50,964 bases of DNA from contig JYFJ02002780.1 of NCBI GenBank assembly GCA_000934665.2, forward strand, positions 1-50,964. The letters run 5' to 3'. Numbering within the stretch: position 1 is the stretch's first letter; each line of letters starts with the position of its first letter. Source of the DNA: Catajapyx aquilonaris (Eukaryota). Under the pieces are notes generated by a model, which did no database searches, was not told the origin of the DNA, and was given only the letters and a program-made list of their open reading frames with translations. A program made the position numbers and the translations under genes. Below are positions 35,501 through 40,341 of this stretch, piece after piece.

Positions 35501-38500
35501 TGCAATAATAAAGAATATTACAGGGGGGGAAAAAACATCCACAAGAATCCTGCACTGTCCTTTATTCTTTTACGCAGGATATTGCCAATGCCTGGAAGAG
35601 ATTGGAGCTTGCTGAGAAGTCCTTCGAAGAGTATCTCTTGTCAGAGATGATGCGCTTGGAACGGCTAGAACATCTAGCACAGAAGTTCCGCCACAAGGCT
35701 GATATCCACGAAGAATGGACTCGAGGAAAGGAGGAACTGCTTCAAAACCAGGACTTCCGCCATTGCAAGCTCAATGAGCTGAAGGCTCTCAAGAAAAAGC
35801 ATGAGGCCTTTGAGAGCGACCTAGCTGCCCACCAGGATCGCGTTGAGCAGATTGCAGCTATTGCACAGGAGTTGAAGTTAGTTCATTGTTTATGTCTATG
35901 GCACTGACTTTTGTATATTTCAGAAACTTCCATGGAGTTACCATTTTAAAATGTTATTTCATTTTACTTGTATTAAAATATTCAAAGTTGGGATGTAACT
36001 GCCCAAAAGTTGAAAATCAATCACTTGAGTTGTTACTGTACCATGATAATTATTTGTGGAGTGACAATTCAAAATACAACCAATGCCAAAACTTAAAATT
36101 GTGTTGAAGGTAGCACCGCCACAGCATGGCTGAAGCAAGCAAACTAGCGAAAGCATGATTTTGCTAAATCTGTTGGTCCTGGAGGAGTAGAAAAAAACTT
36201 ATCCTGTTATTGAAGGTGACAAATGCAGCTTACACTCCTTGATATATAACAACTGATTAGTCAAGTATATATATCTTAAACTATGGGTTTTTGTGCCATT
36301 TCACACTTTTGGGAGCATGTGAGTGGGGTGGAAAATGAACAGTAGTTGGTCATGGTGGAATCATAAGATAATGGCATCCCCATCTCCAAGGAAGTGCATT
36401 CTTATAAACAATTGTCACTCTTTTTGTGTCCAGCTTCCCAGCTTCCCAAAGTCCACTTGGTTGGACTTGCATAATTTTACCATTGCTCAGCCACTGCAGC
36501 ATTTATTAATTGCTGCCAATTGAAAACAATGCCATAACCACTCATCATTCCTCTCTCTCTCTCTCTCTCTCTCTCTCTCTCTNCCCCCCCCCCCCCCCCC
36601 CCCACTTGCTGCCAAATTTGTGAAGTAGTCTTTATTAAAACAATGTGAGCAATATTACACAGGTCAAAAAGACTCATTGATTTTTTGCAATTAAATGGTA
36701 ATCCCTCATCTCTACCACAACTCTACATCCTGATCCAGAACCCCAACATCCTGGATGCTAATCACCCATCTTCTCCCGACCAACTTCCCTAAGTACATGG
36801 AGCATTGGAACAAATTTATGGCAAATCATCAGGGGTATGGTACTTTTTTATTAGGATTTAAGTCCTTTGTTGTGCATTTATATGCACATTTTGTAACCAA
36901 AATTCAATATTCCTGTCTTTCAAAGTTAAATAAGCAACGTATTATAAACCGCTGGATGCTGGAAGATCTTGGTTCACTGAAATACCCGTTTTATAGTTGT
37001 ATATTTCCATGAATCTGGAAATATTTGGAAATCTTTAAAAATTGATGACATGTTTGATCCATTAGTGGTCACAAAGGATGTGAAGGACTTTTTTCTCATC
37101 AGAAAAACAAATCACAATTTTCTAGCTACAGGAGATGTCAATAATTAGTCCTGCAAATTTTACTGATGCCTGCATTTTTCTTATCATGGGGAAAAAATCT
37201 AAGCAAAAAAAATCATTTTAATTTTGGTCACCCTGTGACAAAGAAAAGCTAATTTTGCCACTGTCATTTGGATTGGGTTGCATAAAAAATGATAAACCTT
37301 GAACAATAATTAACCCTACAGTATATGAATAACCTGGGATCAACCATTTGTTCTCTGTTTACATCATTGATGCAACAGGCCCTTAATACACCACCAGCTT
37401 TAGTCATAAAATTTGGTTACATTTACTTTCAGTGCTCTGGATTACCATGACATCATGTCGGTTAACTCTCGCTGCCAGCGTATTTGTGACCAATGGGATC
37501 GCCTTGGAGCCCTAACACAGAAGCGCCGTGCCACATTGGACGAGACTGAGCGCGTTCTGGAGAAGATTGACCAACTTCACCTTGAATTTGCCAAGAGGGC
37601 TGCACCTTTCAACAATTGGCTGGATGGGACACGAGAAGATCTTGTGGATATGTTCATTGTCCACACAATGGAAGAAATCCAAGGTCTGATTGATGCTCAT
37701 GGCCAGTTCAAGGCCACCCTGGGGGAGGCAGACAAGGAGTACAATGCTATTGTGGGGCTTGTTAAGGAAGTAGAGGCTATTGTGCAGAAGTACCAGGTGC
37801 CAGGAGGACTTCAGAATATGTACACAACTCTTACTGCTAATGTGAGTTTTATCACTATACGGTTGGGAAGAATTGTGACATTGGGGATTGGTGAATGTGA
37901 CTAACTTGATCATCATGGTTTCATGAGAGCTAGTCTTAGGGCATAGGGACAATTACATGTCTGCAGAGTGACACTACCCCTAACCAATAAACAAAAAGGC
38001 CTGATGAAAACTGGTGGTCATGGCAGAAATGTTTTATGCCAAAAAATATAGCCTATATAATCAGTTTTACTTCTTTTCTCATTTAATTGCAGTAAAATTA
38101 AAGCTGTTTTACTTTGTCAATTCTCTATTAATTATATACTTAGCACATTCCAAATATATAAATGTGTTTTGTCTTTTGTTCTGCCTTACTTACGTAATCT
38201 TACTTTTTAGGACCTGACGAAGAAGTGGGGTGAGGTTCGGCAGCTTGTTCCTCAGCGGGATGCCACTCTTCAGGCAGAACTTCGGAAACAGCAGAGTATC
38301 CTTTTAAGGATGTTGCGTTCATTCTTTAAACTTTTCATAAATAGTAGGTACTGAAACAGAAACTGGCTGATTCAGTTGCTTTTACAAGGTGGTGTCATAT
38401 AATTTTTACCTGTATGGAGGGCCATACTGAGGATTTATTCCTCCCCATATTCCAATATCATGGGGTGTACCAGAACTCCACGTCTGATTTTGCTTCCATG

Positions 38501-40341: not shown

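Follow-up and report, generated by a model that had tools for sequence, protein, structure and literature searches.

Does one intron of an alpha-actinin gene depend on the minor spliceosome, while the other introns of the same gene are of the ordinary kind? The question is raised by a gene lying in the window, as we call the whole stretch of DNA analysed here (50,964 bases), in which a first-pass annotation had singled out the intron between coding exons 10 and 11 as a U12-type intron. This label of the flanking exons is right if the alternative exons 6a and 6b are counted once, as is done throughout this work (14 coding exons, 13 introns). We consider it very likely that the intron at 38296-38768, hereafter intron 10, is of the U12 (minor) type and of the GT-AG subtype. 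The features discussed are listed below; several borders were taken from the joints of a contig of the public run X1, which is described further on, and a slash marks the exon-intron boundary.

14415..40341, + strand: coding part of the alpha-actinin gene, with 893 codons and a stop in 14 coding exons
32036-32121 and 34616-34701, + strand: alternative exons 6a and 6b, each 86 nt, with AG/GT borders
38211..38295, + strand: coding exon 10, 85 nt, ending ...AAA CAG CAG A (X1 contig joints)
38296..38768, + strand: intron 10 of 13, very likely U12-type GT-AG, phase 1, codon N628, nominal length 473 nt
38296..38304, + strand: 5' splice site GTATCCTTT, in the context AGA/GTATCCTTT, 0 mismatches to GTATCCTT
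38747..38754, + strand: branch-point sequence TCCTTAAC, 0 mismatches, presumed branch A at 38753
38767..38768, + strand: 3' splice site AG (sequence and X1 contig joint)
38769..39124, + strand: coding exon 11, 356 nt (X1 contig joints), approximately the whole fourth spectrin repeat

The alpha-actinin gene of the window

Upon joining, the 14 coding exons give a continuous open frame whose only stop is the terminal one, and the resulting protein of 893 aa is 92.5% identical to arthropod alpha-actinins across its full length. Exon 1 (14415-14522) was located with the N-terminus of a relative, and the other exons lie within 30779-40341. Six exon translations scanned against Pfam gave matches to CH, Spectrin (three exons), EF-hand and EFhand_Ca_insen, and relatives of the window protein carry PF00307, PF00435, PF13405 and PF08726. 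CH domains, spectrin repeats and EF hands are combined in one 893-aa chain, which is the architecture of alpha-actinin; like fly Actn and vertebrate ACTN1-4, the window gene has two CH domains, four spectrin repeats and EF hands. Since the nearest named relatives of the protein are insects and springtails, at 91-92%, the gene appears to be slowly evolving and of hexapod type, without specific hymenopteran affinity (90.4% identity to the ant representative).

Intron 10 splits codon N628 in phase 1, at the site KQQ-N-NE of the protein. Residues 5-105 of exon 11 match positions 3-104 of the 105 positions of the Pfam Spectrin profile and, because exon 11 encodes nearly the whole of this profile, intron 10 would mark the start of the fourth spectrin repeat of the rod.

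Two other regions of the gene deserve mention. The first coding intron (window 14523-30778) spans 16.3 kb, and its part between about 20 and 28 kb is G-skewed, with a GC content of 0.44-0.48 and a G+C above that of the rest of the window. The pair of alternative 86-nt exons 6a and 6b, presumably mutually exclusive, sits where the actin-binding domain ends. Alternative exons are also a feature of this part of the vertebrate and fly actinins, and duplicate matches to the exon-6 residues were observed in many genomic contigs of relatives.

Splicing signals and removal of intron 10

U12 introns follow the donor consensus /RTATCCTT(T), placed directly at the exon boundary, and their branch A lies about 10-20 nt from the 3' splice site; the donor consensus of U2 introns is MAG/GTRAGT. 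The U12 donor string is in agreement with entries of the mammalian minor-intron catalogue (PMC6717393). As U12 branch-point consensus we used TCCTTAAC (TTCCTTRAY). Intron 10 combines a U12-type donor, a U12-type branch-point sequence, a distance of 15 nt from the branch A at 38753 to the last intron base, G 38768, and removal at GT-AG ends. The start and the branch motif at 38747-38754 reported by the first-pass annotation proved exact, in coordinates as well as in motif. Measured against the U2 consensus, the donor AGA/GTATCC deviates at positions -1, +4, +5 and +6.

The remaining 12 introns have donors of the GTAAG-, GTGAG-, GTTAG- or GTCAG-type, with 3-6 mismatches to GTATCCTT as against 0 at intron 10. 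Their best branch-like 8-mers have 2-4 mismatches and lie 1-13 nt before the acceptor, and a usable U12 branch site was found in none of these 12 introns. By donors and branch-site mismatches all 12 are U2-type, as they had looked to the first-pass annotation, and they would be removed by the major spliceosome.

Could intron 10 be just another U2-type intron, removed by the major spliceosome and resembling a U12 intron by chance? GT-AG ends are also found in U2 introns, the 14 nt from the branch motif to the AG are pyrimidine-rich, and the window counts of either motif are not above those of shuffled windows. GTATCCTTT occurs once on the two strands of the 50,964-base window, as the donor of intron 10, and this count is uninformative because 0.62 copies are expected from shuffled windows and at least one copy was present in 47 of 100 shuffles. 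For TCCTTAAC there are two copies, one per strand, against 1.68 expected from shuffles, and the sole copy on the + strand sits at the U12 branch-site position of intron 10. Motif counts in the window by themselves carry no weight, but the placement of the motifs exceeds chance: the probability of finding both correctly placed, estimated from intron base composition, is about 1.4e-8 per intron and 1.8e-7 over 13 introns. Moreover, the donor of intron 10 is a poor U2 site, and a donor of the same type recurs at the N628 codon in two Hymenoptera-like contigs (L045 and L064, see below). We regard a U2-type intron with a fortuitous U12 likeness as extremely improbable.

The U12 assignment of intron 10 also finds parallels among catalogued minor introns. 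Its donor 12-mer is identical to AGAGTATCCTTT, the listed 5' splice site of four mammalian minor introns, in human MYSM1, C2CD6 and TBCK and in mouse 2610002M06Rik (PMC6717393). In the minor-intron table (MIDB) of Olthof 2019 (PMC6717393), AGAGTATCCTTT scores 89.5-91.5 and GTCCTTAACT stands in 11 branch-site cells with scores of 85.8-94.1; carried over to intron 10, these values of the identical donor 12-mer and of xxGTCCTTAACT branch sites are a proxy and not a classifier run. The mammalian introns (MYSM1, C2CD6, TBCK) share with intron 10 the donor 12-mer, the xxGTCCTTAACT branch form, the GT-AG ends and a short branch-to-acceptor distance, but their host genes are different, that of intron 10 being an arthropod alpha-actinin.

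The first-pass annotation had derived the boundaries of intron 10 from the protein sequence, and they agree with an exact joint from 38295 to 38769 (GT..AG) in an X1 contig of 4,339 nt (depth 190.5, 0 differing letters). This joint has no positional ambiguity ('both' = 0). The contig skips five introns, intron 10 and four neighbours, and can be regarded as a transcript because these five introns are absent at about 80-fold the depth of intron-containing sequence; the joint therefore confirms the boundaries of intron 10 independently of the protein alignment. X1 is a single public run whose kind is not on record ('?'), and the junction comes from this one contig. The only other X1 contig (depth 2.3) covers part of intron 9 and extends into exon 10. 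X1 holds 49% of the words sampled from 37400-40400, and the boundaries of intron 9 were taken from the contig joint. Contigs are not suited to showing retention or kinetics, and the fact that no X1 contig extends over the body of intron 10 was not counted as evidence on retention.

From established facts on the U12 class of introns, we infer that intron 10 depends on the minor spliceosome. The U11/U12 di-snRNP would jointly recognise GTATCCTTT as donor and TCCTTAAC as branch site, after which U6atac would take over from U11 at the donor. The branch A, at about 38753, would attack the donor, and the AG located 15 nt downstream of this branch A would serve as acceptor. An Rfam scan of the 50,964-base window gave 0 matches at the gathering score.

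A run of NNN followed by a long G run, located inside intron 10 at 38637-38660 of the window, looks like an assembly gap, and the length of 473 nt is only nominal because of it. N-plus-homopolymer spots were also observed near 27.9 kb and 36.57 kb, where they appear as X in ORF translations. A nested element or an alternative exon within intron 10 was considered and rejected, as the sequence, the ORFs and the X1 contigs give no sign of either.

Codon N628 in other arthropods and the age of the intron

The first-pass annotation had proposed to map intron positions at KQQ-N-NE across metazoan alpha-actinins, and for relatives this could be done in metagenome contigs. A scan with exon 11 matched 123 stretches, the best 80 of which were kept and sorted by tblastn with a damselfly alpha-actinin into 55 cDNA-like and 25 genomic-looking contigs. 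The taxon labels given here to these contigs express nearest protein identity alone. Among the best 80 of 123, seven of the 25 genomic-looking contigs share an intron in the N628 codon, in phase 1, and 18 are intron-less at this codon, including the water-flea-like contigs L042, L057 and L067. The seven introns comprise two of U12-type, four of U2-type and one, mayfly-like, without a U12 branch site.

The two U12-type cases (L045 and L064) are near-identical: both show A/GTATCCTTG at the donor and, towards the acceptor, TTTCCTGAAT, whose branch A is located 12 nt upstream of the AG. In both, the branch site TCCTGAAT departs slightly from the consensus and comes close to the catalogued one of C2CD6. 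Both contigs are nearest to the four Hymenoptera in the set (89-93%), all others standing at 85-87% and the window protein at 83.5-85%. U2-type donors were found in L036 (GTAAGG), L060 and L061 (GTAAGT in both) and L062 (GTATGA). There is no U12 branch site in L036, L061 and L062, whose nearest named proteins are those of springtails (75-81%), the overall top matches including unnamed sequences; L060, which was not ranked itself, was grouped with L061 because the two introns are identical in sequence. In the mayfly-like contig (L013, 94.8% identical to its nearest proteins, those of mayflies), the visible part of the intron is limited to its last 56 nt, and no U12 branch site is present there.

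The contigs closest to the window in exons 10-11, among the best 80 of 123, are L058 and L059. Both have exons 10 and 11 fused in frame at the site of the U12 intron (L059:3908-4237 and L058:1789-2118) and keep introns of roughly 1 kb elsewhere; they appear to represent a clean intron deletion in a close relative.

Rod-domain intron positions were otherwise observed to differ widely between arthropods. An extra intron, about 34 codons into the exon 11 region, is present in L036, L042, L044, L045, L057, L060-L062, L064, L065, L067 and L070, and the window gene is without it.

Since the position at N628 is common to springtail-, mayfly- and Hymenoptera-like genes and to the window gene, the intron would be at least as old as the hexapods. 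According to the available part of Janice 2012 (PMC3291851), 112 deletions and 76 type conversions have taken place among 71 insect U12 introns, the conversions running from U12 to U2, with one known recent U12 addition. An ancestral U12 intron appears to be the simplest history, because two lineages bear U12 signals and because of this bias towards deletion and conversion. Most likely, intron 10 is a long-standing U12 intron of hexapods that has been converted or lost in other lineages, and the pattern at N628 is the usual fate of insect U12 introns. A U12-type intron would have been present in the hexapod common ancestor at the latest. The window species and its Hymenoptera-like relatives would have retained it in this form; in springtail-like and probably also in mayfly-like relatives it would have turned into a U2-type intron, and in others it would have been lost by precise deletion. 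The change most likely ran from U12 to U2, as judged from the known bias and from two U12-bearing lineages only.

Alternatively, the intron could have been ancestrally U2-type and have become U12-type secondarily, either in two independent events, one in the window species and one in Hymenoptera, or in a single event in an ancestor common to both. Indeed, five of the seven intron-bearing contigs among the best 80 of 123 are not U12-type (four by their U2 donors, L013 by its 3' end only), and the springtail-like group, the earliest-branching one sampled, is U2-type. However, a change from U2 to U12 would require two coordinated motifs, and the bias reported in the available part of Janice 2012 (PMC3291851) consists of U12-to-U2 conversions and deletions, with the single recent U12 addition already mentioned. 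In addition, a perfect donor together with a perfect branch site is unexpected from a recent chance conversion to U12. We therefore find an ancestral U2-type intron very unlikely. The first-pass annotation had left the choice between an ancestral intron lost elsewhere and a lineage-specific gain; the mixed states at N628 favour the former, and the latter is disfavoured.

Alpha-actinin among the hosts of minor introns

To our knowledge, human actinin exon lengths suggest no intron at the N628 codon, which was not counted as evidence; CG4376, one of the names searched, we take to be fly Actn. No entry for ACTN1-4 or Actn was found in the 8 supplementary files, human and mouse, of Olthof 2019 (PMC6717393), in which SPTSSA and CIP2A were found as a positive control. 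For insects, the catalogue of Janice 2012 (PMC3291851) holds 71 U12-type introns, which were traced from starting lists for fly, mosquito and honeybee. In the portion of its Table S1 that was searched, actinin is absent from the named genes, including 18 Drosophila seeds, and two entries are labelled 'unknown'. The terms 'actinin', 'Actn' and 'CG4376' are absent from the searched texts and supplements of Janice 2012 and Lin 2010, as are actinin, ACTN1, ACTN2, ACTN4 and Actn from the searched, possibly partial, supplements of Larue and Roy 2023, Moyer 2020 and Olthof 2024. Literature searches on alpha-actinin with minor introns and on intron positions returned nothing about intron 10 by title or abstract. 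The earlier statement that no U12 intron is known in fly or human actinins is thus borne out by the tables of Olthof 2019 and by the searched part of Janice 2012. Fly Actn and the vertebrate ACTN genes are not listed as minor-intron genes, whereas the window gene very probably has one such intron. Intron 10 may already stand as an unremarked row in the online databases IAOD and MIDB.

The introns in the part of the Janice 2012 catalogue available here (PMC3291851) are of the same class as intron 10 and show the same behaviour, being kept in Hymenoptera-like genes and converted or deleted elsewhere, but their named hosts differ, since alpha-actinin is not among them. This part of the catalogue already includes the cytoskeleton-linked hosts dia, p16-ARC and l(2)gl (PMC3291851). 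The first-pass annotation had described U12 introns as residing mostly in information-processing or channel genes; alpha-actinin can be called an atypical host, but it is less surprising than that description implied.

Minor introns are reportedly spliced more slowly in mammalian cells, where they respond to U6atac levels. It is tempting to suggest that slow minor splicing limits or tunes the output of alpha-actinin in muscle and that the U12 intron has been kept for this reason, as its perfect signals are maintained within a highly conserved gene and the spliced X1 contig has a high depth. However, relatives manage with a U2-type intron or with fused exons 10 and 11 (L058 and L059), and, as argued in the abstract of Larue and Roy 2023, much in the evolution of minor introns may be accounted for by neutral processes. 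Because relatives have a U2-type intron or no intron at this site, the alpha-actinin gene seems to work without intron 10, and we consider a role in limiting expression unlikely.

It would be a broader claim that an ancient U12 intron, dating at least from the hexapod ancestor, is missing from the minor-intron lists searched here and causes the main cross-linker of the Z-disc to require the minor spliceosome in certain insect orders but not in others; we find this doubtful, if somewhat less so than the expression-limiting role. If true, the coexistence of U12, U2 and intron-less versions of one highly expressed gene would amount to a natural experiment, which could separate the throttling of gene output from neutral leftovers. 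Intron 10 is a new example of a minor intron, correctly recognised but of a rather ordinary kind, and leaves the understanding of either spliceosome unchanged. It adds a well-supported new arthropod host, an abundant structural muscle gene, to those of minor introns, and a single codon displays three fates among related arthropods: U12 intron kept, conversion to U2 and deletion. The case is relevant to the study of how minor introns are lost, and the expression-limiting claim could be tested on it. For annotation, gene finders that follow U2 rules can misplace the junction of intron 10.

Downstream of the gene, two inverted repeats were observed, one at 49728-49959 / 50057-50288, with 232-nt arms that are 93% complementary and lie 97 nt apart, and one at 48847-48950 / 49162-49265, with 104-nt arms (83%). 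Because identical short ORF text is found on both strands, they probably correspond to a repeat or a transposon remnant.
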